DNA of 64,000 nucleotides from Candidatus Omnitrophota bacterium (lineage in GTDB: Bacteria; Omnitrophota; Gorgyraeia; Zapsychrales; Fredricksoniimonadaceae), in the NCBI GenBank assembly GCA_015233335.1, contig JADFXX010000001.1, positions 134,302 to 198,301 on the forward strand, in the 5' to 3' direction. Below the pieces are notes generated by a model that worked only from the letters and a program-made list of their open reading frames with translations, was not told where the DNA came from and did not search any database. The position numbers were made by a program, and so were the translations under genes. Of the stretch, positions 12,545-47,298 are shown piece by piece (position 1 is the stretch's first letter; every line of letters begins with the position of its first letter).

Positions 12545-12563
12545 AAGTAACTCCTAAACCATC

Positions 12564-12640
12564 GTCATTCTGAGGCAAAGCCGAAGGATCTTAAGACATC
12601 TTCAGACATCTTAAGATCCTTCGCTTCGCTTAAGGATGAC
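12564..12640. repeat. Palindromic intergenic repeat, type B, full copy
   Basis: gtcattctgaggcaaagccgaaggatcttaag ... cttaagatccttcgcttcgcttaaggatgac, between glgP and hppA. Confidence 0.9.
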
Positions 12641-12642
12641 AT

Positions 12643-15057: not shown

Positions 15058-15108
15058 TTGAACTCCCTTCCTTAATATATGACATTACAATGACGTTTGG
15101 AAATTTTA

Positions 15109-15126
15109 ATAATAACTAGTTATTAT
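15109..15126. promoter_or_regulatory. Perfect 18-bp palindrome ATAATAACTAGTTATTAT (candidate operator)
   Basis: Base-by-base check shows perfect dyad symmetry. It overlaps the predicted -10 of the hppA promoter. Confidence 0.45.
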
Positions 15127-15150
15127 ACACAAATAAATACGTTTTATCTA
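15122..15150 (-). promoter_or_regulatory. Candidate sigma70-type promoter of hppA (TAGATA-17-TATAAT)
   Basis: On the minus strand: -35 TAGATA (15145..15150), a 17-nt spacer and a perfect -10 TATAAT (15122..15127), about 65 nt upstream of the hppA start. Confidence 0.4.
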
Positions 15151-15181
15151 ATATCTTTTATAAGTTTTTCTTATAGGTTGC

Positions 15182-15589
15182 CTACTTTACCCCATGTTCC
15201 AGGAAACATCCTGTGTACTTTTTATCCATCCCCCTGATATGTTCCTTCACCCAACTCCAGAGGAATTCTAATAAGTCCACAGTCACTTTGGCGTCCCCCT
15301 TGTCATATTTCTCGATAAACTCTGCAACCTTGATCTTAAAGTATTCATGCTCCTTGCGATGCTCTTCAAAACCCGGGAAGTTAAAGCCTTCCATATATTT
15401 CTCTTCTGTATTGAAATGATAAACAGTGTAATTAACTAATTCTCTTAAAATCTTTCCTATGCCATCCTCTTCAACAGGCCCCATGGTGGCAGACACAAGT
15501 ACATTTAAGAGACTTATAAGCTTTTTGTGTTGTTCATCGATCTCCTTGATCCCAACACTATAAGATTGGCTCCAACCCACAGCTTCCAT
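15182..15589 (-). CDS. Bacteriohemerythrin (hemerythrin-like metal-binding protein)
   Basis: 135 aa. IDEQHKKLI, HFNTEE, EHRKEH and WVKEHIRGMDKKY match the His/Glu/Asp diiron ligand pattern of bacteriohemerythrins. Confidence 0.85.
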   Translation of the reverse strand: MEAVGWSQSYSVGIKEIDEQHKKLISLLNVLVSATMGPVEEDGIGKILRELVNYTVYHFNTEEKYMEGFNFPGFEEHRKEHEYFKIKVAEFIEKYDKGDAKVTVDLLEFLWSWVKEHIRGMDKKYTGCFLEHGVK

Positions 15590-15608
15590 AAATACCTCCT
15601 GGTTTATG

Positions 15609-16271
15609 CTACTCCAGATCGATCATTTGAGTCTTCCCCACATAATCCGTACGCTTTAGCTGCTCTAAAGCCTGGATTTTTTTAAGAATGGCCATGACCT
15701 TGCCCAACTCATTCTTGACCTTCAACAATGACGCATGACGCTTATCCGTTTCCGGGATTTGAATCAAGAGCCCCTCAAGATAGGCGACCGCGGCCATCAA
15801 CGGCTGGTTCATGTTATGGTTATATGTCACCACCATGTTCTTAACTGTTTCAAGATTGGAGACTTGAAGTTGTTCTTCTTCAGCCCTTTTAATGCGCAGG
15901 TGAGCCTTGACCCGGGTCTTGACCTCTTCGGGTTTAATGGGCTTCACAATATAATCAGCCGCGCCTAAGGCAAAACATTTAGCCATATCTTCCGTGTGAT
16001 CCATGGCAGTAATAAACAGGATCGGGATAGACTTATATTTTTTATCGGCCTTCAGCCTTCGACAAACCTCAAAGCCATCAATCTGGGGCATGATAACATC
16101 AAGCAATATAATATCCGGGGCCCCGCGCTCAATAGATTCAAGCGCAGTAACACCGGAATCAGCTTCTGAAATACTATACCCCTCATCTGCCGCAATCAAA
16201 ACTGCCTTTAGGACCTCGCGGTTGGTCTTTTTGTCATCCACAATTAATATTTTTGAATTGAATTGATCCAT
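15609..16271 (-). CDS. Response regulator: receiver domain plus DHp-like C-terminal helix (no ATPase domain)
   Basis: REC motifs (ILIVDD, PDIILLDVIMP, ADYIVKP). The C-terminus TYNHNMNQPLMAAVAYLEGL resembles a HisKA H-box. I prefer ATG 16271 (GGGAGAAG upstream) to the GTG at 16289. Confidence 0.7.
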   Translation of the reverse strand: MDQFNSKILIVDDKKTNREVLKAVLIAADEGYSISEADSGVTALESIERGAPDIILLDVIMPQIDGFEVCRRLKADKKYKSIPILFITAMDHTEDMAKCFALGAADYIVKPIKPEEVKTRVKAHLRIKRAEEEQLQVSNLETVKNMVVTYNHNMNQPLMAAVAYLEGLLIQIPETDKRHASLLKVKNELGKVMAILKKIQALEQLKRTDYVGKTQMIDLE

Positions 16272-16273
16272 AA

Positions 16274-16813
16274 TTACTTCTTCTCCCACTTTTTGACAAT
16301 AGCGCTGATCTTTTCCTGCACCTTGGATTTGATCTCAATATCGCTCAGGATAGAATTAAGCAGTTCCTCATGTTCTTCAGCCATGCGCAGGATATCCATC
16401 TGCAGTTCCTTGTTTTGCTTTTCTAGGTTGAAACGTTCAATCGCATGTTTCAGGGGCAGCAGCACCTTGTCTTTATCCTCGATGGGTTTAAGGATATAAT
16501 CAAAGGCCCCTTCCCGTAAGGCGTCCTGACATGTTTCCATGGTTCCGAATCCCGTCAGGAAGATCAAAGGGATACGGCTTTCCTTGCTGTTAAGGTACCT
16601 GATGAGTTCAATCCCGCTTTTCCCGGGCATTTTAAGATCACAGATAATGGCTTCAATTTCTTTCTGTCTCCCGATGACCTTGATGGCATTATCAACACCA
16701 TCTGCCGTGTACGCCTCAAATCCCAGCGCCTCCAGAAGCTCCTTGAGAGACTCCCTGATGGCCTCTTCGTCGTCCACCAGCAACACACATCCTAGTTTTA
16801 TATTTTTAGCCAT
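16274..16813 (-). CDS. Response regulator, receiver domain with short coiled C-terminal tail
   Basis: VLLVDDEE, ICDLKMPGKSG and FDYILKP are receiver motifs. GGAGG RBS upstream of the ATG. Confidence 0.8.
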   Translation of the reverse strand: MAKNIKLGCVLLVDDEEAIRESLKELLEALGFEAYTADGVDNAIKVIGRQKEIEAIICDLKMPGKSGIELIRYLNSKESRIPLIFLTGFGTMETCQDALREGAFDYILKPIEDKDKVLLPLKHAIERFNLEKQNKELQMDILRMAEEHEELLNSILSDIEIKSKVQEKISAIVKKWEKK

Positions 16814-16830
16814 GGTTTCCTCCGGTAATT

Positions 16831-18003
16831 TTACAAAATCCCCAGCTCCTCTATAAGCGCTTTATGAAAGGCCGCATCGTTGTTCAAGTCTTTATCACGG
16901 TCCAATGCAAGCGCAAAATAAAAAAACTTCCTCTCATTTTTTAAAGACACAAACCCGATCGTTCCCTTATGGTTCCTTATGATGGTGGATGATACCGAAA
17001 GCCCGAGGCCAGTGCCCTTACCCGGCGCCTTGGTCGTAAAGAAAGGATCAAATAGGTTCTCCTCTGATCCGCTTTTGACCGCAATGCCATTATCAATAAT
17101 GCCGGCTAGGATAGCCGGAAAATCCTTCATTTTCCGAGCTAATACCCGTATCTGGCCGCCCTCCTGCTGATTAAACTTCTCATCAACCGCATCACGGGCA
17201 TTGACCAAAAAATTCACCACTACATCCTGGATCTGATACCGGTCTATGTAAAGCGCAGGAAGATTTTCTTCCAACTCCAAAATAACATTAATGTTATGGT
17301 CCTTAAACTGCTGTGTCAGAAGGAAGATCCCGTCACTAATAGGACGTTTGACATCCCCCTCGGCAAATCCGCCAATCCGTTGTCCGGAATACTCATGCAT
17401 CCGTTTAACGATGGTGCCCAGCCTGACAAACTGGTCCTTGATCTTGATCATCTTGTTCTTTAATATCAAATTTTGTGTAAACTCATCCTGCAGCAAAAGA
17501 CCCTCAATGTGGGATGAAATGGCCATCAAAGGCTGATTCATCTCATGGGCAACACCGGCGCTCAATTCCCCCATCGCGGTCAATTTTGCCGCCCTTAAAA
17601 GCTGCACCTCTTGGGTCTTTAACTGGCGGTATATTTTCTGGTTTTCCAAAGCTCTGCTGATATTCAGCAAAAGCGCATCAAAATTAACAGGTTTGATCAA
17701 ATAATCAGAGGCTCCTTTTTTCAAAGCGGAAATGGCACTTTTGATGTCCCCGTATCCGGTCAGGAGAATAACCTGGGTCTCAGGGCTCATATTTTTAATT
17801 TTTTCCAGCAATTCGAGGCCATCCATACCACCCGGCATACTAATATCGGAAATGATCACATCCGGTGTCTGCAGGTCAAAAATCTCCAAACCTTGTTCTG
17901 CGCTCTTAGCGACAAAGACCTCAAAATTTTTGGCCTCCAGAAGTGTTTGGATCTCAACACGCTGTATTTCTTGATCATCAACAACTAATATTTTTATTTT
18001 CAC
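16831..18003 (-). CDS. Hybrid sensor kinase: N-terminal receiver + HisKA + HATPase_c
   Basis: REC (ILVVDDQE, VIISDISMPG, SDYLIKP), H-box GVAHEMNQPL, N-box NFLVNARDA and G-box GKGTGLGLSV. No obvious sensory or TM domain. Confidence 0.85.
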   Translation of the reverse strand: MKIKILVVDDQEIQRVEIQTLLEAKNFEVFVAKSAEQGLEIFDLQTPDVIISDISMPGGMDGLELLEKIKNMSPETQVILLTGYGDIKSAISALKKGASDYLIKPVNFDALLLNISRALENQKIYRQLKTQEVQLLRAAKLTAMGELSAGVAHEMNQPLMAISSHIEGLLLQDEFTQNLILKNKMIKIKDQFVRLGTIVKRMHEYSGQRIGGFAEGDVKRPISDGIFLLTQQFKDHNINVILELEENLPALYIDRYQIQDVVVNFLVNARDAVDEKFNQQEGGQIRVLARKMKDFPAILAGIIDNGIAVKSGSEENLFDPFFTTKAPGKGTGLGLSVSSTIIRNHKGTIGFVSLKNERKFFYFALALDRDKDLNNDAAFHKALIEELGIL

Positions 18004-24586: not shown

Positions 24587-25597
24587 TTACCCCCTGTTTA
24601 ATTGAAGTTTAAATTTAGTCTGATTCTCACGCCACCAAAATCTCCAAGCTTCAATAGCATCATCCTTATCTGTCTTAGAGGAACGGGCTTTGAACCCAAA
24701 ATCCTCACCGGTTATCTTCTTTAACGATACCGCAGCCGTTGACTGGACATCATGGTCCGTATCTGCCAGAAGGGTAATTAATCCTGAAATAGCTTGCGCC
24801 ACTTTAAGAGCACCCGTGATCTGAGCTGCTGCCTTGCGGACACCGGGGTCTGGATCATGCAGTGCCGCAACGGCATGCAGCGAGCATCGCTCACTGAAGC
24901 TCCAGCAAAGGCAGTTTAAGACCTGTCTTCTGACCTCATGGTCACGATCTTTCAAAGCAGAAGCTAAAATATTAAACCCTTCATCGTCATGATACTTGGA
25001 GATGGCCCGCAGTGCCGCCAAACGGATCCCCGTATCCTGATGGCCGATAAAATTCTTGAACACCTCTTTTGTAGTAGCGCCGTCTTCGCTGACAGAGGCC
25101 AAGGCATTTAACAACTCGATGATCTGCAGGGTGTCCTGTTCACGGGAAAGCAGCTCTTCAAGCATCGCGACCGCGGTAGGTCTGGAAAGTTTTTTGATCT
25201 GTCGCAAGGCCTGAATCCGTACGGCCCGGCTGGGTGATTGGATATCTCTGAAATATATTTCTACCTCAACCTCTTCGGTCTTATTGGCAAAAGCCACATT
25301 CTTTAATCCGGCTTGGCGGACAGGAAGAGCCTTCTCAAGAGCCGGCTCGGGCTTTTTCTTTTCGACCACAGGTAGTGATACCACAGGCTCAATACGAGAA
25401 ACCGGCAAAACCGCAGGGGCCACGACCGCAGCCGGAGCTGGGGTCACAGCGACGGTTTGCGCGACCGCCTTTACCACAGCAGGTGTCCGCCTGCCAAAAG
25501 CCAAAAGATAACTAAACTCCTTTTCAACACTTTTGACCGCAACACCCAAAAAATGCGCCAAATCGTTCTGCACACCTGTAGTACTTTTTGTTTGCAT
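24587..25597 (-). CDS. HEAT-repeat protein (Mad23/25/26-like scaffold candidate), module 1
   Basis: 336 aa. The C-terminal half carries repeated PBS-lyase/HEAT units (DTGIRLAALRAI, DRDHEVRRQVLNCL, DPDPGVRKAAAQIT, DTDHDVQSTAAVSL). Confidence 0.7.
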   Translation of the reverse strand: MQTKSTTGVQNDLAHFLGVAVKSVEKEFSYLLAFGRRTPAVVKAVAQTVAVTPAPAAVVAPAVLPVSRIEPVVSLPVVEKKKPEPALEKALPVRQAGLKNVAFANKTEEVEVEIYFRDIQSPSRAVRIQALRQIKKLSRPTAVAMLEELLSREQDTLQIIELLNALASVSEDGATTKEVFKNFIGHQDTGIRLAALRAISKYHDDEGFNILASALKDRDHEVRRQVLNCLCWSFSERCSLHAVAALHDPDPGVRKAAAQITGALKVAQAISGLITLLADTDHDVQSTAAVSLKKITGEDFGFKARSSKTDKDDAIEAWRFWWRENQTKFKLQLNRG

Positions 25598-25647
25598 AAA
25601 ATATACCCGTGGAATAAATGTTATTCCGAATACTAATTTGCTTTTTT

Positions 25648-25675
25648 ATTATAAAGTCAATGAGACAAAAAGCAA
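25648..25675 (-). promoter_or_regulatory. Candidate sigma70-type promoter (TTGCTT-16-TATAAT) upstream of HEAT module 1
   Basis: On the minus strand: -35 TTGCTT (25670..25675), a 16-nt spacer and -10 TATAAT (25648..25653), about 50 nt upstream of the ATG at 25597. Confidence 0.35.
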
Positions 25676-25706
25676 GAAATTATAAAAAATAAATAAAATT
25701 GATCAC

Positions 25707-25741
25707 TGTCATTGCGAGGAGCAAAGCGACGAAGCAATCTC
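25707..25741. repeat. Palindromic intergenic repeat, type A, left arm only
   Basis: tgtcattgcgaggagcaaagcgacgaagcaatctc with no matching right arm. Confidence 0.8.
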
Positions 25742-25758
25742 AATCTAAAAAACTCATT

Positions 25759-25947
25759 TCATAGGGATTGCCTCAATTCGCCCGCAAGAGCAGTCTTCTT
25801 TTTTTCCACATAATCAATAAGCCCCATGACACGCTCAACCTCCAGCTCCAAATCCTTGCTGTGGCCCGCATATTGAAATTTGATCCTATTGCCCCGGTGC
25901 CAAAGGTAAAATTGCCGGCCCAAGGCCTGATAACAACGCTTGTCCAT
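25759..25947 (-). CDS. Small hypothetical protein
   Basis: 62 aa. ATG preceded by AAGGAG. No recognisable motif. Confidence 0.3.
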   Translation of the reverse strand: MDKRCYQALGRQFYLWHRGNRIKFQYAGHSKDLELEVERVMGLIDYVEKKKTALAGELRQSL

Positions 25948-25965
25948 AAACGGCTCTCCTTGCGA

Positions 25966-26292
25966 TCAGCCAAGCAATAATTTAAAGCCCCGTTTTACGG
26001 CGGCGGCCGCTTTGCCGGCGCTATAGGCGCCGACAGCGACAAAGTCCCCTAACTCCACCCCTTTAAGATCAGACCTGATCTGCCGGCTGACACCCTTGAA
26101 CATCGCAACCGTTTCATCCGTGATCTTTTGGGTTTTATGGCCCTGTTGATCCTTATTCTCATCCAAAATAATTTCCGCGACACGCTCGGCGCCCCGCGAT
26201 ACGTTCTGACGAACGCCGGCCATGGATTTTTTAATGATCGCGGCCTTCTGCCTGACCTCTTTTTTCGCTTTAACTTTCAGTGCTTTTACCAT
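25966..26292 (-). CDS. Small basic protein partnered with HEAT module 2
   Basis: I prefer the internal ATG (MVKALKVKAKKE...) at 26292, one nt after the upstream stop. The longer track ORF (to 26457) would overlap the HEAT gene by 164 nt. Composition resembles the 144-aa protein at 27928..28362. Confidence 0.45.
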   Translation of the reverse strand: MVKALKVKAKKEVRQKAAIIKKSMAGVRQNVSRGAERVAEIILDENKDQQGHKTQKITDETVAMFKGVSRQIRSDLKGVELGDFVAVGAYSAGKAAAAVKRGFKLLLG

Positions 26293-26293
26293 A

Positions 26294-27928
26294 TTATTTC
26301 CTGCCTTTTTTCTCTGCAGGCCGCACTTGTGCCCTCTTGGCGGCGGCTGACGTCTGAAGGTCTCGCAATAATCGGGGCTTAATATAGCTTTCTTTGGCCA
26401 ATGCCTTCCAAACCCTGGCCTGACGCTTGCGCTCGGGCAAAGTGGCTGAATAATCATACCCCTGATCTGTCCCGGTCAGGCTGATTAAAGCCTCGATCGT
26501 TTCCTTGCACACCTTAATATTTGAAGATTCCAGTTTAGGGACCAAGGTCACGAAGGCAAAATGATTACCCATAAGCCCAAGTTTGCGGATCGCAACCCGC
26601 GCAACCCCTTCATCAATATCAGCGGACAGACGTGCGATGGCCGAAGCCTCCGGGTCACCTGCCCTATGATCGAGATGATTGACAATAAACCGGCGGATAT
26701 GCGGATCAGGGTCCCTGATAGCTGATACGATGACATGCTTAGCTTCATCAGAACCAAGCTTAACTAACCCCATCATTCCCTGCAATCTGAGAGATGAATC
26801 TTCATCATTAATAAAACGCCGATAAAGATCGACCAAGGTAGGATAATCCAAAACGCTCAGAAGCGATAACAGCTTCCTCTGAAAAAAGATATCCGCTTCA
26901 CGGGTCAACTCATAAAGCAGAGGGACCGCTCTTTTAGGGGCATTGCGAAAGATCGTATGCAAAACCGCCAGCTTATCTTCATCAGAAGTGCTTTCACTTG
27001 AAAGCTTGCGTCCGGCAGTCTCGAGCAGCCCATAGTCGGCCGCGGCTTCATCTGTTTCAACGCTCGGGCTTTCCATAAAATCTTCCTGTTCGGAAGATAA
27101 GGACTCCTCCTCTTGTGTCGATTCTAGGGTCTCTTCTTGCGGCTCATCTTGACTGACAATCTCTTCTTGCGGCTCATCTTGGGGATATTCCGGAACAGAC
27201 GCCGCAGGAGGCAGGCGGTCTTTGAGACTTGGGCCTTCGACACGGGCCTGCTCAAGGTCTTTTTCGTAAACCGTGTTAATGTTCTTAAAAAGAACTACCA
27301 CCTCATCAATAAGGTCATCCACGCGTTTGGTCGTCTGATTGACTTCCTGCTCAAGTTTTTCCAGAAAAGACTTTTCAGCCTTCCACATGGCAACCTCAGG
27401 ATTATCAGCAAAGAATTTCTTTTTCGTTTCCATAATAAGTTTGATCTCCTCCCGCTTCTTGGCCATCAAAAGAATAAGCTTCTGGATCTTTTCATCCAAA
27501 GCAGCCTGATAGGCCGCGGTCCTCTCACCGGTCGTATGCAAAAGACCGGCAGACAGACAGTCGTTCAAATCTTTCTGGACATCAAGGATCCTGTTTTCCG
27601 CCACACGCAAAGCAACGTTCATCTGAGTGTACGGCTCGATCTGCCCCCGCCGGGAAATTTCGGGCGGCCGTGCTTCTTGGGGTTTTTCCTCTTTGACGGG
27701 AGCTTGTCCCTGAACCTTTTTCTCTTTCCTGTCAAAGATCTTCTCTTGGACTACATCCCTGATGAGCCTCTTGGCTGAAACCATTAAGGCCGGATCTTCA
27801 GGATCAAAATAATAAGCAATGGAGCCGGCCTGAATATTCTCATACAAGAGCCTGCCCAATGTGATGAACAAAGAATCAGTTTGGGTACCGCACTCGTTTA
27901 GAAGTTCGCGTTTATTCTTAGTCGGCAT
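26294..27928 (-). CDS. HEAT-repeat protein with N-terminal coiled-coil/acidic region, module 2
   Basis: 544 aa. C-terminal HEAT units (DEDSSLRLQGMMGL, DPDPHIRRFIVNHL, DIDEGVARVAIRKL). The N-terminus is paralogous to the 357-aa protein (LFITLGRLLYENIQAGSIAYYFDPED vs LVFLFGEQIHQLYKSQDINFIFSPEG). Confidence 0.7.
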   Translation of the reverse strand: MPTKNKRELLNECGTQTDSLFITLGRLLYENIQAGSIAYYFDPEDPALMVSAKRLIRDVVQEKIFDRKEKKVQGQAPVKEEKPQEARPPEISRRGQIEPYTQMNVALRVAENRILDVQKDLNDCLSAGLLHTTGERTAAYQAALDEKIQKLILLMAKKREEIKLIMETKKKFFADNPEVAMWKAEKSFLEKLEQEVNQTTKRVDDLIDEVVVLFKNINTVYEKDLEQARVEGPSLKDRLPPAASVPEYPQDEPQEEIVSQDEPQEETLESTQEEESLSSEQEDFMESPSVETDEAAADYGLLETAGRKLSSESTSDEDKLAVLHTIFRNAPKRAVPLLYELTREADIFFQRKLLSLLSVLDYPTLVDLYRRFINDEDSSLRLQGMMGLVKLGSDEAKHVIVSAIRDPDPHIRRFIVNHLDHRAGDPEASAIARLSADIDEGVARVAIRKLGLMGNHFAFVTLVPKLESSNIKVCKETIEALISLTGTDQGYDYSATLPERKRQARVWKALAKESYIKPRLLRDLQTSAAAKRAQVRPAEKKGRK

Positions 27929-28362
27929 TATATTTCCGCAACATCCTTGGTGGCCTTTTCGATCTCTTTTTCAAGATCAGGATCGGCTGATACTTTTTTG
28001 ACGGCTTTCTTGGCGCCACCTTTACGGGCCACAGTCTTCTTTTTAGGCAAAACCACAGCTTGGGCGACTTTAGGCTTGCTCTGCACGTGGCCTTCGCTAA
28101 CCGAATCCATTCCTGCCCTAAATGACTGTCTTATCTCCCGAGTACTTTTCTCAACTGTTTTGGTAACTTGGTCCAACACCACCTCGGCCTTCTCACCGAA
28201 ACTGTCACAAATATCCTGGGTCGCAACCACCACACTTTTAAGCGGTTTCTTTTCAGCGACCCGTCCCAACTCCACGACCTTTTTACACAGAAAACCTGTC
28301 TTGTAAGAAATGGCCTTTAAAAGCCCTTGAAGCTCACTGTTCTTATTTTTTTCTTTGACCAT
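27928..28362 (-). CDS. Small basic protein partnered with HEAT module 3
   Basis: 144 aa. Overlaps the upstream gene by 20 nt and the downstream gene by 1 nt (TAATG), implying translational coupling. Confidence 0.45.
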   Translation of the reverse strand: MVKEKNKNSELQGLLKAISYKTGFLCKKVVELGRVAEKKPLKSVVVATQDICDSFGEKAEVVLDQVTKTVEKSTREIRQSFRAGMDSVSEGHVQSKPKVAQAVVLPKKKTVARKGGAKKAVKKVSADPDLEKEIEKATKDVAEI

Positions 28363-29416
28363 AAGTTTTATTCCTTTTTCTTTCCGGCATAAGTTTCTCT
28401 AATGCCTTCTCAGCCGCTTTTTTAACATCTTCTTCTTTATCAGATAACAAGTTCTTGACCGCCCTCAGGGCCCCTTCAGGCTTGACGATAGAAAGCATCT
28501 CAAGCAGGCTGATACGGACAAAGGAGCTTGGGTCTTCCCACGCCCTTATCGCCTTACTGACCCCTTCCTTACCATAATATATTCCCAAATAGGTCACAGC
28601 AAGCCCTCGAATATGCTGGTCATTGTCCTGAAGAAGGCTTTCGAGGATCTCGCCGTTCCTTGGGCTCACATGACTGCCGAGGCCCTTGATCGCCGCAGTC
28701 CTGACCTTGATGTCAGGATCATTCATGCCCAGCTCAAAGAACCCAGCAGAATCGCCCTCCTTCATACGGGAAATACTCTTCATAACAGCCATGCGAACAA
28801 GAGCGCTCTCATCCTTCATAGCAAATTCGTAGACCTGGCGCAAGACCTCAACCGGAGTTATATGCGCGATTTGCCCGAGGGCAACCTCGCGTTCGCGGAC
28901 AGAACCCATTGAGAACTGCTTAATGTTGCGTTCAAAAAGCCTTCTGTCCGCATCAGAGGTGAACACGGCCGTATCAAGAAGCCGGGTTAAAGTGTCATCA
29001 AGCCTGACTTTTTCTTGGGCAAAAGGAGCGCTTATTGAATTTTCTTCTTCAACAATTTTCTTGACCTCTGATTCAACAACGCTGATCTGCTCCCCGGTCT
29101 GCGACTCTTCGGCCTCTTGCTGTAAGCCCTCTTCCTCATCAAGGGTTGCCTTATCTTCTTGTGCGGCTTCCTCTTGGAGCCAAGCCTCGTCCTCAAGTTC
29201 ATCTTCTTCTAATCCGTCCTCTTGAAGATCGGAAATTCTCTCATCAAGATAGTCCAAAAGCCTTATAAGCCGATCGATCTCCTTTTCTTTAAGACGACCT
29301 TCAGGTGAAAAAATAAAATTTATATCTTGAGATTTATAAAGCTGGTGAATCTGCTCACCAAACAAAAAAACCAGCTTCCTGTGCTTATCTTTAAGTTCCT
29401 GCAGTTGAGGCTCCAT
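28343..29416 (-). CDS. HEAT-repeat protein with acidic coiled N-terminal region, module 3
   Basis: 357 aa. HEAT units (DESALVRMAVMKSI, DPDIKVRTAAIKGL, DNDQHIRGLAVTYL, DPSSFVRISLLEML, DKEEDVKKAAEKAL). Confidence 0.7.
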   Translation of the reverse strand: MEPQLQELKDKHRKLVFLFGEQIHQLYKSQDINFIFSPEGRLKEKEIDRLIRLLDYLDERISDLQEDGLEEDELEDEAWLQEEAAQEDKATLDEEEGLQQEAEESQTGEQISVVESEVKKIVEEENSISAPFAQEKVRLDDTLTRLLDTAVFTSDADRRLFERNIKQFSMGSVREREVALGQIAHITPVEVLRQVYEFAMKDESALVRMAVMKSISRMKEGDSAGFFELGMNDPDIKVRTAAIKGLGSHVSPRNGEILESLLQDNDQHIRGLAVTYLGIYYGKEGVSKAIRAWEDPSSFVRISLLEMLSIVKPEGALRAVKNLLSDKEEDVKKAAEKALEKLMPERKRNKTYGQRKK

Positions 29417-35047: not shown

Positions 35048-36091
35048 TTACACAAAAAATAGTTTGATCGCGAGTATCACCAGTATCACCACAAAAAGAT
35101 ACAACGTTATTTTCGTATTAAGCTTGGGCGCAATGCGTGCGCCAGCCTGCGCGCCAACGATAACTCCGACGCCCATCCACAAAGCCTCGGCATAACAAAC
35201 ATTGCCCAAAAATACGTGCGGTAAAAGTGCGATCGCGCAAGTTAAAAGCGTTACAAAGTGGCTCGTTGCGGTGGCTACGTGCGACGGATATCTTAAGAGA
35301 AAAATCAAGATCGGCACCTGGAACACGCCGCCGCCGATTCCCAGAAACCCGCATAAAAATCCCAGCAAAAGATTCATTGAAATACCAAGCTTATCATTGG
35401 AGTAATAATCGTATTTAACGCCGAAACTGTCCGTGAATTTCACCCGGCGGTGTCCTGCAGCCTTGGATTCCTTAAGCAAGACTTGTTCCTGCTCTTCTGT
35501 CTTGTCCACCCTCCCCACGCTCATGATGGTGTATACGGCCAGGAAGATCAGGAAAACACCAAAGACCTCATTAAAAAACGTCATGTTGATCAAATGATGC
35601 GTAAAACTAGATATCAAAGCCCCCGGCATGGCCGCCAGCGTGAATTGGATCCCGCCTTTGAAGTCGATCCTTTTTTGCATGGCATATCCGACACAGCCCG
35701 AGCCTGCGTTTAAAAAAACAATAAACAGGGATGTGGCAACCAAAAGTTCATTCTCCCAGCCATAGAAAAACACCAAAAGCGGGAGTATGATAGGGCCCCC
35801 GCCGATACCGACGATCGTCCCATAACATCCGATGATAAGACCGGTCACAAGCAACAGCCAAGCCGGCTGATCAGGAATAACCGCAGGGCCTTGTGGCGCC
35901 GTCATTGCCTGCGGAAGTGCAGCCAGCAATGAAGGCCCCGTGTTAAATCCCAGCTGTAATGACTGCGGATTTGTAGTCGATGTTTTCGAAGGGAAGAACA
36001 TCGCGGCAAAAACTACGAGCACGATCAGGATAACAAGCCCTATCCTGACATAGCCCGTCCAATTATAAACGGTTTCTTTTTTATCAAACAT
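35048..36091 (-). CDS. TauE/SafE-family permease (equivalent of the MamO C-terminal domain)
   Basis: 347 aa polytopic protein with two TauE-type halves carrying GIGGGPIILPLL and GIGGGVFQVPIL motifs. Confidence 0.75.
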   Translation of the reverse strand: MFDKKETVYNWTGYVRIGLVILIVLVVFAAMFFPSKTSTTNPQSLQLGFNTGPSLLAALPQAMTAPQGPAVIPDQPAWLLLVTGLIIGCYGTIVGIGGGPIILPLLVFFYGWENELLVATSLFIVFLNAGSGCVGYAMQKRIDFKGGIQFTLAAMPGALISSFTHHLINMTFFNEVFGVFLIFLAVYTIMSVGRVDKTEEQEQVLLKESKAAGHRRVKFTDSFGVKYDYYSNDKLGISMNLLLGFLCGFLGIGGGVFQVPILIFLLRYPSHVATATSHFVTLLTCAIALLPHVFLGNVCYAEALWMGVGVIVGAQAGARIAPKLNTKITLYLFVVILVILAIKLFFV

Positions 36092-42029: not shown

Positions 42030-43217
42030 TCAAAATGCCGTTCCCGATAATTTTTTCAAAATAACATGGCAGTTGTTACACCGTCCGCGGTCCTCATGAG
42101 GCGCGACCGCTCCCTTTACGATAGGAGGAGGAGAAGGCAAAATGTCCCCTGCATCCGTCGGAAGCTGACCGCCGGTGATCATAATGATGTGACATGAAGT
42201 ACAAGGCTGATTCCGGCTTCGATGCGGGCTCAACGCGCCGGGTGTAATGGGCTGAGCCGCCTCATTTTGCGAAAAGCCCAAGGTCCTGACCGATGAGAAC
42301 GTAAATTCGATCAGCTGGCCGCGTCTTGATACTAAAACCTGCGCCTTATGCCTGTTCTTAACACGTCTGGTGGCCTCAGTGAATGCCAAAAGATCAGGAG
42401 TGGCAAAGCCATCAACGGCCACGACCATATCCCCTGCCAATATTCCGGATTCAGCAGACTCAAGGGCTATCTCATCCACCAAAAGACCCTTGGTGTCCGG
42501 AGGGATCCCATACTCTTTGGACAATTCCGGTGTAGTCGGTATAAGCTCCATCCCCAGCCAATGGCCTTCAACTAATTCTTTCAGGGCCGCACCCTGTTCT
42601 TTGGGTGTCGGAAGGATCACTTGAGGAGCATTCGAAGGGGCGGCATTTGAAGGAGCAATAGCCCCCGCTTCTGCAGTTTCCGCAGGCGAACGGTTTGCAA
42701 ACGCCGCAGGCATCATCGCCTGAGGCTGACCGGCAGTTCGGGTGGTATCTGCCATAGTCCCCGTCTTGGGACCGACATTGAGCATTTTTTTAATCTTATC
42801 ATGCAACCCTAACTTGTTCTCCATGGTGATATAAAGCGGCTGGCCGTTGCGAAGAAGATCCAGAAGAAATCCCGGCTCCTGACTGACTGCCCTCGCGACT
42901 CTGAGAAAATCCCCTAAAACATATATCTTCTGATTATTGATTGCTTTAATAAGATCGCCGCTGCGAACACCGGCCTTATATGCCTCACCCTCGCACCAGT
43001 TGACCACAACTCCCTGCTCATCCTTGGGGATACCAAATTCCATTCTCATCGCAGGTGTCACATTAGAAACCGACATACCGCCCCATTCCGCATCACCTGC
43101 GCCTATATGCATGAGTGCAGCAATAAAGAAGAGGGCAAGCCCCACCAGAACGGCGATGAGTAAAAACTTCATCCGTCTTTGCTGTCGCATTTCTTTAAGT
43201 TCAAGTTCAATAGCCAT
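42030..43217 (-). CDS. mamP: Double-PDZ, double-magnetochrome protein (MamP-like / MamE C-terminal-like)
   Basis: 395 aa. A TM anchor, two PDZ domains (AGVRSGDLIKAINNQKI; SGILAGDMVVAVDGFAT) and two magnetochrome motifs, SPHRSRNQPCTSCH (CTSCH at 42189..42203) and APHEDRGRCNNCH (CNNCH at 42066..42080). Confidence 0.8.
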   Translation of the reverse strand: MAIELELKEMRQQRRMKFLLIAVLVGLALFFIAALMHIGAGDAEWGGMSVSNVTPAMRMEFGIPKDEQGVVVNWCEGEAYKAGVRSGDLIKAINNQKIYVLGDFLRVARAVSQEPGFLLDLLRNGQPLYITMENKLGLHDKIKKMLNVGPKTGTMADTTRTAGQPQAMMPAAFANRSPAETAEAGAIAPSNAAPSNAPQVILPTPKEQGAALKELVEGHWLGMELIPTTPELSKEYGIPPDTKGLLVDEIALESAESGILAGDMVVAVDGFATPDLLAFTEATRRVKNRHKAQVLVSRRGQLIEFTFSSVRTLGFSQNEAAQPITPGALSPHRSRNQPCTSCHIIMITGGQLPTDAGDILPSPPPIVKGAVAPHEDRGRCNNCHVILKKLSGTAF

Positions 43218-43226
43218 ACGGTTTTT

Positions 43227-43490
43227 TTATTTCCCTAATTTTTCAGCGTCAATATTAAAACGTTCGATCGCGGTATTACACTCCTTGCAGACCCACAGGT
43301 CACGCTTGGCTCCCAGCATATACAAACCGATCAGGATCAGGGGAATCCCCAGAACCATGCCGATCCAAAAAAGGACGGCGATAATACCAAAGATGATAAA
43401 AAACCCGGCGACCTTGCGGTTGTAGCGAGGCCCTGAATACTGCTGCATTTCACCGTTGCAATGTGTACAAATAATAGGCTTACCTGCCAT
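43227..43490 (-). CDS. Small membrane protein with split zinc-ribbon (CxxC...CxxC)
   Basis: 87 aa. CTHCNGEM at the N-terminus, two TM helices, and CKECNTAI at the C-terminus. Confidence 0.45.
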   Translation of the reverse strand: MAGKPIICTHCNGEMQQYSGPRYNRKVAGFFIIFGIIAVLFWIGMVLGIPLILIGLYMLGAKRDLWVCKECNTAIERFNIDAEKLGK

Positions 43491-43506: not shown

Positions 43507-44775
43507 TTATTTCCCCGCACCAATGACGATTCGTGCAGAATTTGGATTCTGCGCCGCTACATTCTGCATTTGATTATTCTGCATTTGATTCGCTTGCATT
43601 GTAGAATCCAATATCTGATGACAATTGGAACATACTCCCCTATATGCATGCGGCATCATGGCATCCCGACTGATCGGCGGAGCCTGCGTTACCGGTTGCG
43701 TCATAGCCACCTGATTACCATAATTCCCGTTACCATAGAATCCATTTTGATACTGCGGTGCCATCTGGTTATATTGCTGTGCAACAGGCTGCATAGTATT
43801 CGGCTGCTGATAATAATTCGGCTGTTGATAATAGTTAGGCTGCTGATTATAATTCGGCGGCTGATAATAATTGGGCTGCTGATTATAGTTAGGCTGCTGG
43901 TACATCCCCCCCTGTCCCTGCATGGCTCCAGCTTGCATTCCGTTAGGCGGCAGCGGGCAATACGGATTATTCCCCATGCCCATACCCATCCCTACAGCCT
44001 GCCCCTGCATATATTGCCCGCCTTGACCAAAGGCTGCTTGAGTATTGTCAAAAGCTGGTTGTTGCATTTGATAATTTTGATTATATTGCTGTGCAACAGG
44101 CTGCATTCTATTAGGGATCGGACAATACGGATTGTTTCCCATGCCCATTCCTTGCCCCTGCATAAATTGTCTTCCCTGACCAAATGCAACTTGCGTGTTG
44201 TCAACAAAACCTTGGGGTGTTTGTGCCGGGACATTCGCTTGGGGTACCGATGCATTCATCGGCTGCGGTGATGCTGATATTCTTGCCTGACGATAAAGCT
44301 TAACGACCTTCTGCGCCCGGCCCTGATAGCCGCCGAACACCCTGATACCGAATTGCATCAAAACATTATAACTTTGGGGGTCAATGTTGCCCACGATCAC
44401 AGCTTCTTCCCCTTTACTCGCAACCAAATAAATGAGCTGACTGCTGGCATCAGGGCCGCGATAAGGATTCTTGACAGCTTCAACAAGTTTCCCTGAAAGA
44501 GGATTGACCACCAGAAAATAACGCGCTTCGTTGAGTGTCGCAGATACATTGGAAGCCAAAGATTGACCGTCGGTTGCGATCACGATCATCCCGCAGGCAG
44601 GATTGCCCTGCATGGCACTTTTGCCTTCGGGTGAAAACAAAGCATAAAGGCCGACGATCAAAACCACCAGGATCGCGCCAAAAATGAAGAAGGTGTTCAG
44701 GTCGGCATTCTTAAATTTCGCCATGAACTCTTCAAAAGTTTTATCAAAGCTTTTCGCTAACGGCTTCTTGACCAT
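43507..44775 (-). CDS. Membrane-anchored NifX/NifB-C-like domain + Q/N/P/Y/G/M-rich repeats + single C-terminal magnetochrome
   Basis: 422 aa. A TM helix, a NifX-like region (IVIATDGQSL...ARYFLVVNP...EAVIVGNIDPQSYNVLMQFGIRVFGG), a low-complexity region with an internal duplication and hexapeptide repeats, and a C-terminal MPHAYRGVCSNCH (CSNCH at 43618..43632). Confidence 0.6.
   Translation of the reverse strand: MVKKPLAKSFDKTFEEFMAKFKNADLNTFFIFGAILVVLIVGLYALFSPEGKSAMQGNPACGMIVIATDGQSLASNVSATLNEARYFLVVNPLSGKLVEAVKNPYRGPDASSQLIYLVASKGEEAVIVGNIDPQSYNVLMQFGIRVFGGYQGRAQKVVKLYRQARISASPQPMNASVPQANVPAQTPQGFVDNTQVAFGQGRQFMQGQGMGMGNNPYCPIPNRMQPVAQQYNQNYQMQQPAFDNTQAAFGQGGQYMQGQAVGMGMGMGNNPYCPLPPNGMQAGAMQGQGGMYQQPNYNQQPNYYQPPNYNQQPNYYQQPNYYQQPNTMQPVAQQYNQMAPQYQNGFYGNGNYGNQVAMTQPVTQAPPISRDAMMPHAYRGVCSNCHQILDSTMQANQMQNNQMQNVAAQNPNSARIVIGAGK
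43801..43905. repeat. Coding 18-nt tandem repeat, ~5.5 copies (hexapeptide NY[NY]Q[QP]P)
   Basis: cggctgctgataataatt / cggctgttgataatagtt / aggctgctgattataatt / cggcggctgataataatt / gggctgctgattatagtt / aggctgctgg..., read directly from the sequence. Confidence 0.85.
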
Positions 44776-44792
44776 AAAATACCCCCATCTTT

Positions 44793-45401
44793 TTATCTAA
44801 AAATCGGCCCGTACTGCACTGCTTGGCCCACGGCCGGAGAACCCATCTGCCAGCTTCCCTTATTCGGGCCCATGAGAGGACCATACTGATACTCAAAGGG
44901 AATGGTCATATAAAAAGTATTCCCATCCCGATAAATTTCAAGCAAAATACCTTCACGATATTGGACCTTATTGACCACATTAATAAAATCGTGAGTGCTC
45001 CTGACATTCTTGCGGCTGACCGAAAGGATCACATCCCCGGTCTTGACACCGTATTTCTGGGCCAATTCTTTCCCCTCATCAATGACGAACATCCCTTTAA
45101 TGTTGCCGGGGATCTTAAAATCTTTTCTGATATTCCTTGAAACGGGTGCGACCTCCATGCCGATCCAAATCATGCTGTCACCCTTTTCAATGACCACTCC
45201 CCTTTGGACAGCCCTTGGCTCCCGGCCTTCCGGAAATATTTCCAACGATTGCAAAAACCAGCAAAATAAAATGATCGCACCAATCCCAAGCCCGACAAAC
45301 AATACCGGCTGCTTGTTCCAAAAATCCTTGATTTTTACCTTGATCTTTTCAAAGTCCTTGAAATTCTCAAAATTTAGCGTTGACGCGGTTTTTTTCTTCA
45401 T
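44793..45401 (-). CDS. Membrane-anchored single-PDZ protein
   Basis: 202 aa. A TM helix and a PDZ core (IKGMFVIDEGKELAQKYGVKTGDVILSVSRKNVRSTHDFINVV). 4-nt overlap with the protease gene. Confidence 0.6.
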   Translation of the reverse strand: MKKKTASTLNFENFKDFEKIKVKIKDFWNKQPVLFVGLGIGAIILFCWFLQSLEIFPEGREPRAVQRGVVIEKGDSMIWIGMEVAPVSRNIRKDFKIPGNIKGMFVIDEGKELAQKYGVKTGDVILSVSRKNVRSTHDFINVVNKVQYREGILLEIYRDGNTFYMTIPFEYQYGPLMGPNKGSWQMGSPAVGQAVQYGPIFR

Positions 45402-46789
45402 TGTAGCCTCACGAGGATCTCGTCTTCTTTTCCGTTCCTCAAGATCCGTACATTAACGTTTTCACCGGCTCTGAAATTCTGCACGACTTTAGGAATTTCA
45501 TCCTTGTCAGTAATGAGCACCCCGGCGACAGAAAGAACAACATCCCCGCGCTGGATGCCTGCGTTTTCAGCCGGCGAACCGTGGACAACCCTGTTGACCA
45601 AAACACCCTGCGTATCCCTTAACCCAAATTGTTTGGCAATAATAGAATCCATAGGCATGACTTCAAGTCCGAAACGGATAGGAACCGGAGATCTTTTGAT
45701 GTTAGGCAGATCAAACTGTTGGGCCGCCAGCAACCCTTTTTGATCGACTGGGAAGGAATAGTTCTTGCCCAAATTCCTGGATAAAAAATCTTTACAGTCG
45801 TTGATGGGAATGGCAAAACCCGTTCCGCTGAAAACCCCTGTAGGCGCATAGATCGCAGTGTTCATCCCGATCACTTCGCCCTTTAGATTGACAAGAGGGC
45901 CTCCGGAGGAACCGCGGTTGATGGCGGTATCCGTCTGAAAAAGGTTCCCGTACTGGACCCCTTCAATCGCGATGGATTTGCGTATACCGCTGATGATACC
46001 GCTCGTGACCGTCTGCTCAATACCGAACGGACTGCCAACCGCCACCACATAATCACCGATCTGTGAAAAGCTTGAATCGCCGATGGCCGCTTCTGGAAAG
46101 GGACCGTCAGCTCTGAGTTTCAGGATAGCCATGTCCATCTTAGGATCCTGTGCCACCACATCCGCAAATATATCACGGGGCGGTTGACCAAAGACCGTGA
46201 CCACAATGTCTGTCGCTTCAGCAATCACATGATAATTCGTCAGTACAAATCCGCGTTCATCAACAACAATGCCGGCGCCGATATTTTCAAAACCTTTATT
46301 CTCGATAAATTTATCAATAGCCCCGCTAAAAGGAGGAACAAACTGCAAGTTCTGAGCATTTGGATTCGAACGTCCGACTGGTGTGCGCACTACATGCCGG
46401 GCATGCACATCACACACAGAAGGAATAATGGCATTAACAGCATATTTCAGTGAATCCTGAAAACCGCCATTATTGACTTGATTGGCCACAAGCTGCATAT
46501 TCCCGTATGGCGTGGCTTTAGTTATAGCCGCGCGGACATAGTTGCTGTCGGTGGGTAGCGTGGTCATCGCGGCAGGCATCACGCCCCCGGGAAAGGACGG
46601 CTCACCGGGAATCGGAAGCTTGACCTTGGGGGCTTCCACTTCTTTGACCCCCTGTAAGATGTCTTCACGCTTCATGACAACCCAGAAGACCGACATGACC
46701 GATAAAGCGACCAGCCCCATGATCCATGGACCTATCGGCTGGTGACAAAATCCGTCTTCAACTTCTTCCGGTTCTTTTTCTTGCGGCAT
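45398..46789 (-). CDS. mamE: Trypsin-like HtrA/DegP serine protease with TM anchor and one PDZ, MamE-like (N-terminal-type, no magnetochrome)
   Basis: 463 aa. Catalytic His (TNYHVI), Asp (DMAILKL) and Ser (GSSGGPLVN), with a C-terminal PDZ (GSPAENAGIQRGDVVLSVAG). No CxxCH motif. Confidence 0.85.
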   Translation of the reverse strand: MPQEKEPEEVEDGFCHQPIGPWIMGLVALSVMSVFWVVMKREDILQGVKEVEAPKVKLPIPGEPSFPGGVMPAAMTTLPTDSNYVRAAITKATPYGNMQLVANQVNNGGFQDSLKYAVNAIIPSVCDVHARHVVRTPVGRSNPNAQNLQFVPPFSGAIDKFIENKGFENIGAGIVVDERGFVLTNYHVIAEATDIVVTVFGQPPRDIFADVVAQDPKMDMAILKLRADGPFPEAAIGDSSFSQIGDYVVAVGSPFGIEQTVTSGIISGIRKSIAIEGVQYGNLFQTDTAINRGSSGGPLVNLKGEVIGMNTAIYAPTGVFSGTGFAIPINDCKDFLSRNLGKNYSFPVDQKGLLAAQQFDLPNIKRSPVPIRFGLEVMPMDSIIAKQFGLRDTQGVLVNRVVHGSPAENAGIQRGDVVLSVAGVLITDKDEIPKVVQNFRAGENVNVRILRNGKEDEILVRLQ

Positions 46790-46813: not shown

Positions 46814-47038
46814 TCAAAATACTAATTTCTCATCTGTCCCGCCGGTCGCGGCCCGAGGATTAGGAAAAGCGGCCTGAACGGCAGCGGGAGTTGGTACGGC
46901 CCCCTTAACACTCCTGCGATGCCAATGTCTTCCCTTGGATTCGAAAAAAATAGCGCTCGCGATAATCACACAAACTGCGAGGATAACCAGATATCCAAAC
47001 CAAGGGCTGAAACATTGCTCTTTCTTACGGCCGATCAT
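46814..47038 (-). CDS. Small membrane protein, unknown
   Basis: 74 aa with a single TM helix (WFGYLVILAVCVIIASAIFF). Lies between the mamI-like and mamE-like genes. Confidence 0.35.
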   Translation of the reverse strand: MIGRKKEQCFSPWFGYLVILAVCVIIASAIFFESKGRHWHRRSVKGAVPTPAAVQAAFPNPRAATGGTDEKLVF

Positions 47039-47064
47039 AACGCCTCACAGAAGCTTAAAAAAAT

Positions 47065-47235
47065 TTACTTCTTATCCTTTAAAAATTTCAAACCGGTATT
47101 GACAGCGATCAATCCGCCTATAAAAAGCACGAGCGGCAATCCACCACGCAAAAAATCGCCGAAATTATCCCACCATCCGATGATCCCGACAAGCCCTAAT
47201 AAAGCTGCGATACCACCTCCGATAATATGCACCAT
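47065..47235 (-). CDS. mamI: MamI-like small two-TM magnetosome membrane protein
   Basis: Below the ORF-track cutoff. My manual translation is MVHIIGGGIAALLGLVGIIGWWDNFGDFLRGGLPLVLFIGGLIAVNTGLKFLKDKK (56 aa), with a GGAG RBS. The WW..F.FLRG..P..L..GL.A pattern matches my memory of MamI (..TAWWWSVTEFLRGAVPVALLI.GLVAL..). Confidence 0.65.
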   Translation of the reverse strand: MVHIIGGGIAALLGLVGIIGWWDNFGDFLRGGLPLVLFIGGLIAVNTGLKFLKDKK

Positions 47236-47298
47236 TTCACCTTCTCCTTTTGTTGTTGATCGAACCTCTTTTGATTGATTCGTTTAATACTACAAGCT

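Follow-up and report, generated by a model that had tools for sequence, protein, structure and literature searches.

A 64,000-nucleotide stretch of a Candidatus Omnitrophota genome (assembly GCA_015233335.1, contig JADFXX010000001.1, positions 134,302 to 198,301; the window) encodes a 422-amino-acid (aa) protein in which an N-terminal transmembrane (TM) helix is followed by a NifX-like domain, a low-complexity region and a single magnetochrome (MCR). Its gene lies in a magnetosome gene cluster (MGC), and the protein belongs to a conserved MGC family that is centred on Omnitrophota and has no name. No paper that names this family was found in the literature searched. The combination of a NifX-like domain with a magnetochrome is already known from FmpB of Desulfovibrio magneticus RS-1. 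The 422-aa protein is a domain-reshuffled variant of the FmpB/MamP type and not a wholly new kind of protein.

The NifX-like domain had been proposed in an earlier note on this DNA, made from the sequence alone, which also suggested a fold prediction; the proposal was borne out by Pfam, AlphaFold and Foldseek. PF02579 matched residues 75-162 with 31.0 bits (cutoff 26.3). A phmmer search of the PDB sequences returned MTH1175 (E 2e-8) and TM1290 (E 6e-7) as well as PH0822 and TM1816, and a search with the family profile matched MTH1175 at E 1.5e-11 and added the Desulfovibrio orange protein (ORP). The AlphaFold model of residues 50-180 (43 homologues) has a mean predicted local distance difference test score (pLDDT) of 84, with values of 90+ in the core. 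The top 11 Foldseek matches all have the NifX fold, with query-normalised TM-scores of 0.58-0.70; the matches include 1rdu, 1o13, 2yx6, 2wfb, 9ian_F (NifX in the NifEN complex) and 1p90 (NafY), and TM1290, TM1816, PH0822, ORP and MJ0327 are among the proteins found. A scan of the whole window found the NifX-like domain only in the 422-aa protein, with no second one.

In the family, N103-P104-Y105, K121, E123-E124, G148-G149 and Y161 of this domain are invariant, and G122 and R162 are nearly invariant. Standalone NifX-like proteins, including MTH1175, retain RFGR..YF, a GAG(I/V)Q loop and GN.GPNA, whereas in the family the HFG/RFGR motif, the GAG loop and the GPNA motif are replaced by (S/T)L.EARYF, NPYRG (no GAG loop) and G.ID.QSY. 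The second NifX domain of FmpB-type proteins is also without these three motifs (e.g. TNLSNARYLIV, GNVSPTTI). A histidine in the HFG region is implicated in FeMo-co (iron-molybdenum cofactor) binding in NafY and is used by nitrogenase cofactor carriers. Judged from its sequence, the domain is NifX-like in fold with a remodelled pocket, and binding of FeMo-co or NifB-co should not be assumed, because the pocket motif positions, including the region of the HFG histidine, are replaced. The general statement that NifX-like domains bind Fe-S or cofactor precursors, on which the earlier note had drawn, is thus not simply transferable to this protein. There were no nif genes among the annotated open reading frames (ORFs) of the window, which run from ~22.5 to 52.9 kb.

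The C-terminal magnetochrome, likewise recognised in the earlier note, matched PF18509 over residues 366-389 with 34.4 bits (cutoff 30.4), and PPISRDAMMPHAYRGVCSNCH aligns residue by residue with MCR1 and MCR2 of the MamP structure 4JJ0. The motif is complete, with a CxxCH, the distal histidine of the upstream P-H, and R/W-G before the first Cys. P366, H376, G380, C382, C385 and H386 are invariant in 46 family sequences. The protein has one CxxCH (CSNCH, residues 382-386, 43618-43632) and not a tandem pair; most family members have one, some have two, and one member has four. The NCBIfam equivalogs for MamP (23.4 vs 300), MamT (23.1 vs 200) and MamX (13.9 vs 400) stayed below their cutoffs and matched only the MCR stretch.

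The architecture had been considered unrecognised, but about 60 database proteins share both the TM-NifX-variable-MCR layout and the gene position. A word-indexed search of 5.8 billion proteins returned 58 homologues, nearly all from Candidatus Omnitrophica/Omnitrophota metagenome-assembled genomes (MAGs), which had been named automatically as 'magnetochrome domain-containing protein' or NifB/NifX family protein. As for a match to an already named family, no Mad, Man or Mam name was found in the literature searched, to which Kolinko 2016, the first Omnitrophus MGC paper, may still add one, and NCBIfam gave only the sub-cutoff MCR matches; the literature led to FmpB and FmpA alone. Mad9 is listed as a redox protein. 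The locus of the closest orthologue (P0001, Candidatus Omnitrophica MAG GCA_015233675.1) is colinear with the window, and the 19 compared genes of the MGC and its flanks have 69-93% aa identity. The order mamI, small gene, mamE, (PDZ-only gene), family gene, small gene and mamP was seen three more times, in a distant Omnitrophota metagenome, in a further lineage with a TM-NifX-ribbon-MCR member, and in a Planctomycetes MAG with a haem-less version. Synteny of the family was seen in loci L001-L003 and L005.

The middle part of these proteins is the most variable. A regular-expression count over 56 family members found 49 with one to six four-Cys ribbon modules (F.CP.CNW...FP.CPNCG) in the stretch that separates the NifX-like domain from the magnetochrome, for example at residues ~255-300 and ~345-385 of P0002; the modules are predicted to be lumenal. 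Their CPxCG knuckle is of the kind known from rubredoxins and zinc ribbons. Ribbons are missing from the 422-aa protein, P0001 and a few others, which have just two CP-type units within Q/N-rich sequence. The 422-aa protein otherwise matches the family layout (DLN-TM, NPACG, NifX core, variable middle, MCR and tail), and it is a ribbon-less variant that has recently expanded Q/N/Y repeats in their place.

FmpB (DMR_41100; earlier called MamT or MamP-like) has an N-terminal magnetochrome, a PDZ domain and a C-terminal NifX/NifB domain (Rahn-Lee et al. 2015, PMC4287615). The earlier note had been aware of no NifX-like/magnetochrome fusion; FmpB was described in 2015 and was followed up in 2025 (PMC12748827). 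In the latter study, FmpA and FmpB were enriched on early magnetosomes, and alleles predicted to remove their Fe-Mo (NifX) domains resulted in fewer, smaller and misshapen crystals with an abnormal position in the cell. Used as the query of an exhaustive HMMER run over 1.84 billion cluster representatives, the NifX-like domain of the 422-aa protein retrieved 346 relatives. After the family itself, the nearest groups were FmpB- and FmpA-type proteins and standalone cytoplasmic NifX-like proteins with Gly/Met/Arg tails of the FGMGRGMGRG type. Examples of the FmpB type, with 2-3 MCRs, a PDZ domain and 2 NifX domains, are P0067, P0073 and P0074, and examples of the FmpA type, with 2 PDZ domains followed by 2-3 NifX domains, are P0070, P0072, and P0076 from Desulfamplus. 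The domain of the 422-aa protein is 30% identical to NifX domain 2 of the FmpB type (BLASTP, E 4e-17), and the magnetochromes are 38-46% identical. With hhalign, FmpB domain 2 was matched at 99.7% probability (score 144) and the standalone group at 99.8% probability (score 162, 37% identity). The motif comparison given above is more telling than these scores. In a neighbour-joining (NJ) tree, the family (with P0071, bootstrap 86) was sister to the FmpB-type NifX domain 2. The MGC domains fell on one side of this tree, with bootstrap values of <=15 at the deep nodes; for a magnetosome-specific NifX clade, the per-domain scores of FmpA/B-type and standalone proteins overlap.

The 422-aa ORF is uninterrupted, as had been claimed. 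P0001 is 70% identical to the protein over its full length, and the identity of aligned residues is 88% in the NifX region and 70%, with indels, in the low-complexity region. Against P0001, the ratio of nonsynonymous to synonymous substitution rates (dN/dS) lies at 0.04-0.16 in every segment, with a value of 0.11 for the low-complexity part; these values are approximate since dS is near saturation. A frameshift or split ORF, by which the C-terminal CxxCH would belong to another reading frame, was ruled out: the ORF is continuous, the orthologues align end to end, starting at Met1, and share both termini, and purifying selection acts throughout. These comparisons indicate that the gene is real and constrained and encodes one product. 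A 17-nt gap separates it from the upstream PDZ gene (stop codon at 44793-44795).

The single N-terminal TM helix and the lumen-facing topology proposed earlier also held. The TM helix is the sole hydrophobic segment, all remaining 19-residue windows having Kyte-Doolittle values of <=1.6, and it is helical at residues 26-46 in the full-length AlphaFold model. Just before it, D25 and N27 are invariant and L26 is nearly invariant across the family. The attachment of c-type haem takes place outside the cytoplasm. From the single N-terminal anchor with its K-rich N-terminus, and from the c-type haem motif that needs non-cytoplasmic maturation, we infer that the C-terminal 374 residues lie on the side of the magnetosome lumen or the periplasm, the NifX-like domain and the haem included. 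The columns N58, P59, A60, C61 and G62 are invariant in 46 sequences and the motif occurs in almost the whole family; the N-terminal half has no Cys besides Cys61. A ligand or an intermolecular disulfide are possible roles for NPACG. A lipoprotein signal at NPAC|G was ruled out, since Leu is missing at -3 and the Cys comes 13 residues past the hydrophobic core.

Residues 169-360 are Q/N/G/P/Y/M-rich (Q43 N25 G24 P23 Y18 M16), with 35% Q+N, 12.5% Gly and 12% Tyr+Phe, and contain only 2 Asp, no Glu, 2 Arg and no Lys. AlphaFold gives a pLDDT of <50 across the whole region, which is predicted to be disordered. Among the 132 stop-to-stop reading frames of >=100 aa in all six frames of the whole window, the best 80-aa window of this protein has 44% Q+N, compared to a median of 10.6% and a next-best value of 21%, and is the single clear Q/N outlier. 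The internal duplication of ~50 aa and the 18-nt repeat reported earlier were both recovered, by self-alignment and by Tandem Repeats Finder (TRF), respectively; the coordinates previously given for the repeat (43801..43905, with 5.5 copies) were essentially right. Each ~55-aa unit reads DNTQ.AFGQG.Q[FY]MQGQ..GMGNNPYCP[IL]P with one lone Cys (C218, C273), and NNPYCP[IL]P and MQPVAQQYNQ both occur twice in the region. In orthologues including P0002 and P0003, the four-Cys ribbon modules come after the same TQ.AFG.G.Q leader as these units. The 18-nt repeat corresponds to five NY[NY]Q[QP]P hexapeptides spanning residues 296-325, and this array is longer than in P0001, which has fewer copies. Lone Cys-Pro motifs of the form N..[YF]CP[ILM]P recur in many family members and are represented here by Cys218 (44122-44124) and Cys273 (43957-43959); such motifs resemble haem-regulatory Cys-Pro motifs. 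The hint in the earlier note that the repetitive region interacts with the crystal did not hold up, as the region is nearly uncharged, has the lowest conservation in the protein and gives way to Cys4 ribbons in most orthologues. Because 49 of 56 family members have ribbon modules there, it behaves as an exchangeable spacer or tether rather than an acidic crystal-binding segment.

The extreme C-terminus (SARIVIGAGK, 43510-43539) is found in two flavours in the family, '.AR[IV].IG.GK' and 'G..C[IV][IL][RK]'. The second is shared by P0078 and P0094, two outlying relatives, and P0099 has the related '..TPIVR' at its end. The conserved C-terminus may serve as a ligand for a PDZ domain or as a docking strand. 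The full-length AlphaFold model (predicted TM-score, pTM, 0.37) places neither the MCR nor the tail confidently against the NifX domain and is thus uninformative on intramolecular docking.

The features are collected in Table 1.

Table 1. Features of the 422-aa protein, its gene and the surrounding MGC, in window coordinates
Feature	Position	Strand	Evidence or remark
Complete coding sequence, TM-NifX-low-complexity-MCR protein	43507..44775	minus	ORF list and translation; ATG, 422 codons, stop
GGGGG Shine-Dalgarno-like run	44782..44786	minus	Sequence read directly; ATG 7 nt downstream
Cytoplasmic N-terminal segment, residues 1-28	44692..44775	minus	6 K; predicted helix 10-22; ends D25-L-N27
Single TM helix/signal anchor, residues 29-48 (FFIFGAILVVLIVGLYALFS)	44632..44691	minus	Kyte-Doolittle 2.84
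N-P-A-C-G motif, residues 58-62	44590..44604	minus	Directly before NifX-like strand 1
NifX/NifB-C/MTH1175-type alpha/beta domain (IPR003731, PF02579), residues 63-168	44272..44589	minus	Pfam, AlphaFold, Foldseek
Disordered, almost uncharged Q/N/G/P/Y/M-rich region, residues 169-360 (192 aa)	43696..44271	minus	Composition, pLDDT
Two tandem ~55-aa units, residues 191-242 and 243-297	43885..44205	minus	Local BLOSUM62 self-alignment score 157
18-nt tandem repeat x5.7	43798-43899	minus	TRF score 141, 83% matches
Single magnetochrome, residues 366-389, PPI..MPH..YRG.CSNCH	43609..43680	minus	Pfam PF18509
C-terminal tail, residues 393-422	43510..43599	minus	15-nt repeat (TRF) and terminal SARIVIGAGK
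15-nt tandem repeat x2-2.5 encoding NQMQN	43561-43600	minus	TRF
MamI-like 56-aa ORF and 74-aa TM ORF	46814-47235	minus	Upstream of mamE; match called genes of L001
mamI	47065-47235	minus	MamI-like 56-aa ORF
MamE-like trypsin and PDZ protease, 463 aa, no CxxCH	45398..46789	minus	Profile matches
TM and PDZ-only protein, 202 aa	44793..45401	minus	Pfam PDZ_2; NCBIfam MamP PDZ region E 2e-10
87-aa CxxC - 2 TM - CxxC protein	43227..43490	minus	Weak LITAF-like zinc-ribbon matches
MamP, 2 PDZ and 2 MCR	42030..43217	minus	Only other haem-motif protein in the window
PDZ-CitMHS/ArsB-type transporter fusion, 600 aa	36155-37957	minus	89% identical in related MAG
TauE/SafE permease (MamO-Cter-like)	35048-36091	minus	After the PDZ-transporter fusion
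Three HEAT-repeat proteins (336, 544, 357 aa), with small ORFs lacking annotation	24587-29416	minus	Downstream of FeoB/FecR/FeoA-DtxR

The gene is inside the MGC, co-oriented and tightly packed between mamE and the PDZ gene on one side and mamP on the other, in agreement with the magnetosome setting that had been proposed. On the minus strand from ~47.2 kb, the order is the MamI-like 56-aa ORF, the 74-aa TM ORF, the MamE-like gene, the PDZ-only gene, the gene of the 422-aa protein, the 87-aa gene and MamP, followed by a 91-aa protein, two cation diffusion facilitator transporters (MamM/MamB), a tetratricopeptide repeat protein (MamA) and LemA (MamQ). Then come the PDZ-CitMHS fusion, TauE, another PDZ protein, FeoB, FecR, FeoA/DtxR, the three HEAT-repeat proteins, which are probably Mad23-like chain-organisation genes, and a ParA-like ATPase. 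A helix-turn-helix regulator, ApbE, STAS/anti-sigma genes and a Mla-type transporter are located upstream of the MGC. A 119-aa plus-strand ORF (46919-47278) overlapping mamI and the 74-aa ORF is probably spurious.

In the whole-window scan, magnetochromes were found only in the 422-aa protein and in MamP, and there were no further CxxCH proteins. Since MamE is without a magnetochrome, the predicted haem complement of the MGC is MamP with two and the 422-aa protein with one. The start of the PDZ-only gene overlaps the mamE reading frame by 4 nt, and the position of this gene is kept in the Omnitrophota loci L001-L003. It is possible that the PDZ-only protein is a split-off counterpart of the PDZ of FmpA/FmpB; its PDZ and the FmpA/FmpB-type PDZ share just generic similarity (24% identity). 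The 87-aa protein is 92% identical to the syntenic L001 product, and it is a conserved small MGC gene that is always between the TM-NifX-MCR gene and mamP.

Two related loci have additional genes. In a distant Omnitrophota MGC (L002, JGI 3300041085, 10900-17311), mamP is directly followed by a gene for cytochrome c assembly and a series of genes for haem biosynthesis (GlutR, PBG deaminase, HEM4/TP_methylase, radical SAM/SPASM and ALAD), and haem supply appears to be physically linked to this cluster. In L005 (JGI 3300028917, 4676-5239), an extra 187-aa NifX-like protein is encoded between mamI and mamE, in addition to the TM-NifX-ribbon-MCR gene.

We lean, not strongly, towards the explanation that the 422-aa protein is the Omnitrophota counterpart of Desulfobacterota FmpB, a bitopic (N-in, C-out) magnetosome-membrane protein that would serve as a lumen-facing iron-redox and iron-handling factor. 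PMC11648623 describes the MamP magnetochrome as catalysing Fe(II) oxidation, which enables crystal growth. By analogy to MamP, the haem of the 422-aa protein would oxidise Fe(II) or otherwise set the ratio of Fe(II) to Fe(III) that crystal growth needs. Next to the membrane, the NifX-like domain might hold iron or a polynuclear species (iron or iron-sulfur), or dock a partner that does, and might pass the haem its substrate or take it over. The family-specific invariants of the domain are C61, N103-P104-Y105, K121 and E123-E124, with the nearly invariant G122, and their Cys, Tyr and Glu residues are candidate ligands. If the truncation alleles of FmpA and FmpB are a guide, the domain would contribute to the number, size and shape of the crystals. 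The flexible spacer of ~190 aa may let the haem reach away from the membrane. The upstream PDZ-only gene may supply in trans the PDZ that FmpB has in cis, which fits the NifX-PDZ fusions found elsewhere (FmpA/B types; P0099, which is TM-NifX-ribbon-PDZ).

Several points weigh against this explanation. The canonical pocket motifs HFG/RFGR, GAG loop and GPNA are replaced, and thus iron or cluster binding is a guess. Magnetochromes are mostly paired and MamP is a four-haem dimer, so a single MCR may behave differently. Family members P0031, P0052, P0054 and P0059-63 have no CxxCH, and the haem is thus not an invariant core of the family. The hhalign scores slightly favour the standalone cytoplasmic NifX-like proteins (162) over FmpB domain 2 (144), and the deep-node bootstraps of the NJ tree (<=15) give no phylogenetic support for the relation to FmpB. 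Moreover, the organism is uncultured.

In another explanation, the NifX-like domain and the disordered tail would work like IssA and mainly scaffold a mineral precursor (polynuclear Fe or Fe-S) in the magnetosome, and the haem would be accessory. IssA of Pyrococcus furiosus consists of an IPR003731 domain and a disordered Gly/aromatic/cationic tail and assembles thioferrate Fe-S nanoparticles, and MTH1175 was assigned to the IssA clade (Vaccaro et al. 2017, PMC5524996). MTH1175 is the best sequence match of our domain among solved structures, the nearest relatives outside the family include the standalone proteins with FGMGRGMGRG-type tails, and the low-complexity region, with its GMGMG runs and 12% aromatic residues, again gives a domain followed by a disordered Gly/aromatic tail (IssA being compared by description). 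The family members that are entirely without haem, and the grouping of Omnitrophota Mam proteins with greigite-type MGCs (PMC7449369), are also consistent with this explanation. However, RFGR, GAGIQ and GPNA, which the standalone relatives including MTH1175 have, are all replaced in the family. The IssA tail is cationic (pI 10.7), while that of our protein has 2 Arg, no Lys and 35% Q+N, and most orthologues have Cys4 ribbons in its place. IssA is also cytoplasmic, whereas our protein is exported. We consider an IssA-like role unlikely.

On a wider scale, it is doubtful that the magnetosome NifX-fold domains (those of this family, FmpA and FmpB) are lumenal descendants of IssA-type Fe/Fe-S nanoparticle scaffolds. 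No paper linking IssA to magnetosomes was found in the literature searched. If true, deep-branching magnetotactic bacteria would stage or nucleate a polynuclear Fe or Fe-S precursor on a membrane-tethered NifX platform, with the haem setting its redox state. Archaeal thioferrate storage would then be linked, mechanistically and evolutionarily, to magnetosome (possibly greigite-type) biomineralisation.

A different role would be mainly that of a structural adaptor or of a substrate for a protease. The NifX-like domain would dimerise or dock, the tail would be a ligand for a PDZ domain (of the PDZ-only protein, MamE or MamP), and the haem would do no more than relay electrons to MamP. Three PDZ-containing proteins flank the 422-aa protein, the C-terminal tail motif is conserved across the family, and PDZ-NifX fusions occur in other lineages (FmpA/FmpB types; P0099). 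The long disordered linker is an obvious protease target, and MamE processes MamP in Magnetospirillum. However, the tail ends in Lys/Arg, which is atypical for a class I or II PDZ ligand, and the conserved polar and acidic residues of the NifX core (N103, Y105, K121, E123 and E124) suggest a ligand site over a mere interface. We give this role little credence.

Least probable is that the low-complexity region is the functional heart, contacting the crystal or forming a gel- or amyloid-like lumenal matrix that shapes the mineral: its 44% Q+N is extreme for this genome region, its NYYQQP-type repeats resemble yeast prion oligopeptide repeats, and frame and composition are kept between two genomes (dN/dS 0.11), but only 2 of its 192 residues are acidic, in contrast to the acidic segments with which Mms6-type proteins bind iron or magnetite, it has more indels against the closest orthologue than any other part, and four-Cys ribbon modules take its place in 49 of the 56 family members.

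Among the modules that recur in deep-branching MGCs, NifX-like domains are understood least, and the Omnitrophota family is a natural minimal version, with one NifX-like domain, one haem and no PDZ. This minimal layout, the remodelled pocket motifs and the few invariant residues make it a cleaner construct for ligand biochemistry. The family also illustrates that MGCs shuffle a small toolkit (NifX, PDZ, MCR and Cys4 ribbons) in differing orders across phyla. Such shuffling matters for the annotation and comparison of MGCs from uncultured lineages, where the conserved family gene has no name yet.

Compared with known systems, the 422-aa protein shares its fold with NifX, NafY and the C-terminal domain of NifB (9ian_F, E 5e-5; 1p90, E 2e-4), as well as the Pfam family name. 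These proteins are undetectable from it by sequence, and their HFG histidine region corresponds to (S/T)L.EA. They are cytoplasmic and belong to a nif context, whereas here the domain follows a signal-anchor TM helix and is encoded in an MGC. Standalone proteins of the MTH1175/TM1290/IssA type have the same fold and are the best sequence matches among solved structures, and many of them have a Gly-rich disordered tail. Unlike our protein, they are cytoplasmic with cationic tails, have no TM helix and no haem, and keep RFGR, GAG and GPNA. MamP (4JJ0), encoded two genes downstream in the same operon, is likewise a lumenal magnetochrome haem protein; it has PDZ domains and two MCRs and no NifX-like domain. 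FmpA (MamE-Cter, DMR_41090) is also a TM-anchored MGC protein with NifX-like ('Fe-Mo') domains, but it has PDZ domains, 2-3 NifX domains and no magnetochrome, and is much longer. FmpB, which has FmpB-type counterparts in the MGCs of other Desulfobacterota, shares with our protein the MGC location beside mamE and PDZ genes, the exported or lumenal placement, and a magnetochrome and NifX domain in one polypeptide, and its NifX domain 2 has lost the RFGR, GAG and GPNA motifs, as in our family. The two differ in layout: FmpB has a signal peptide, 2 MCRs, a PDZ domain and 2 NifX domains, while the 422-aa protein has a TM helix, 1 NifX domain, ~190 disordered residues, 1 MCR and no PDZ, and the domain order is reversed between them.

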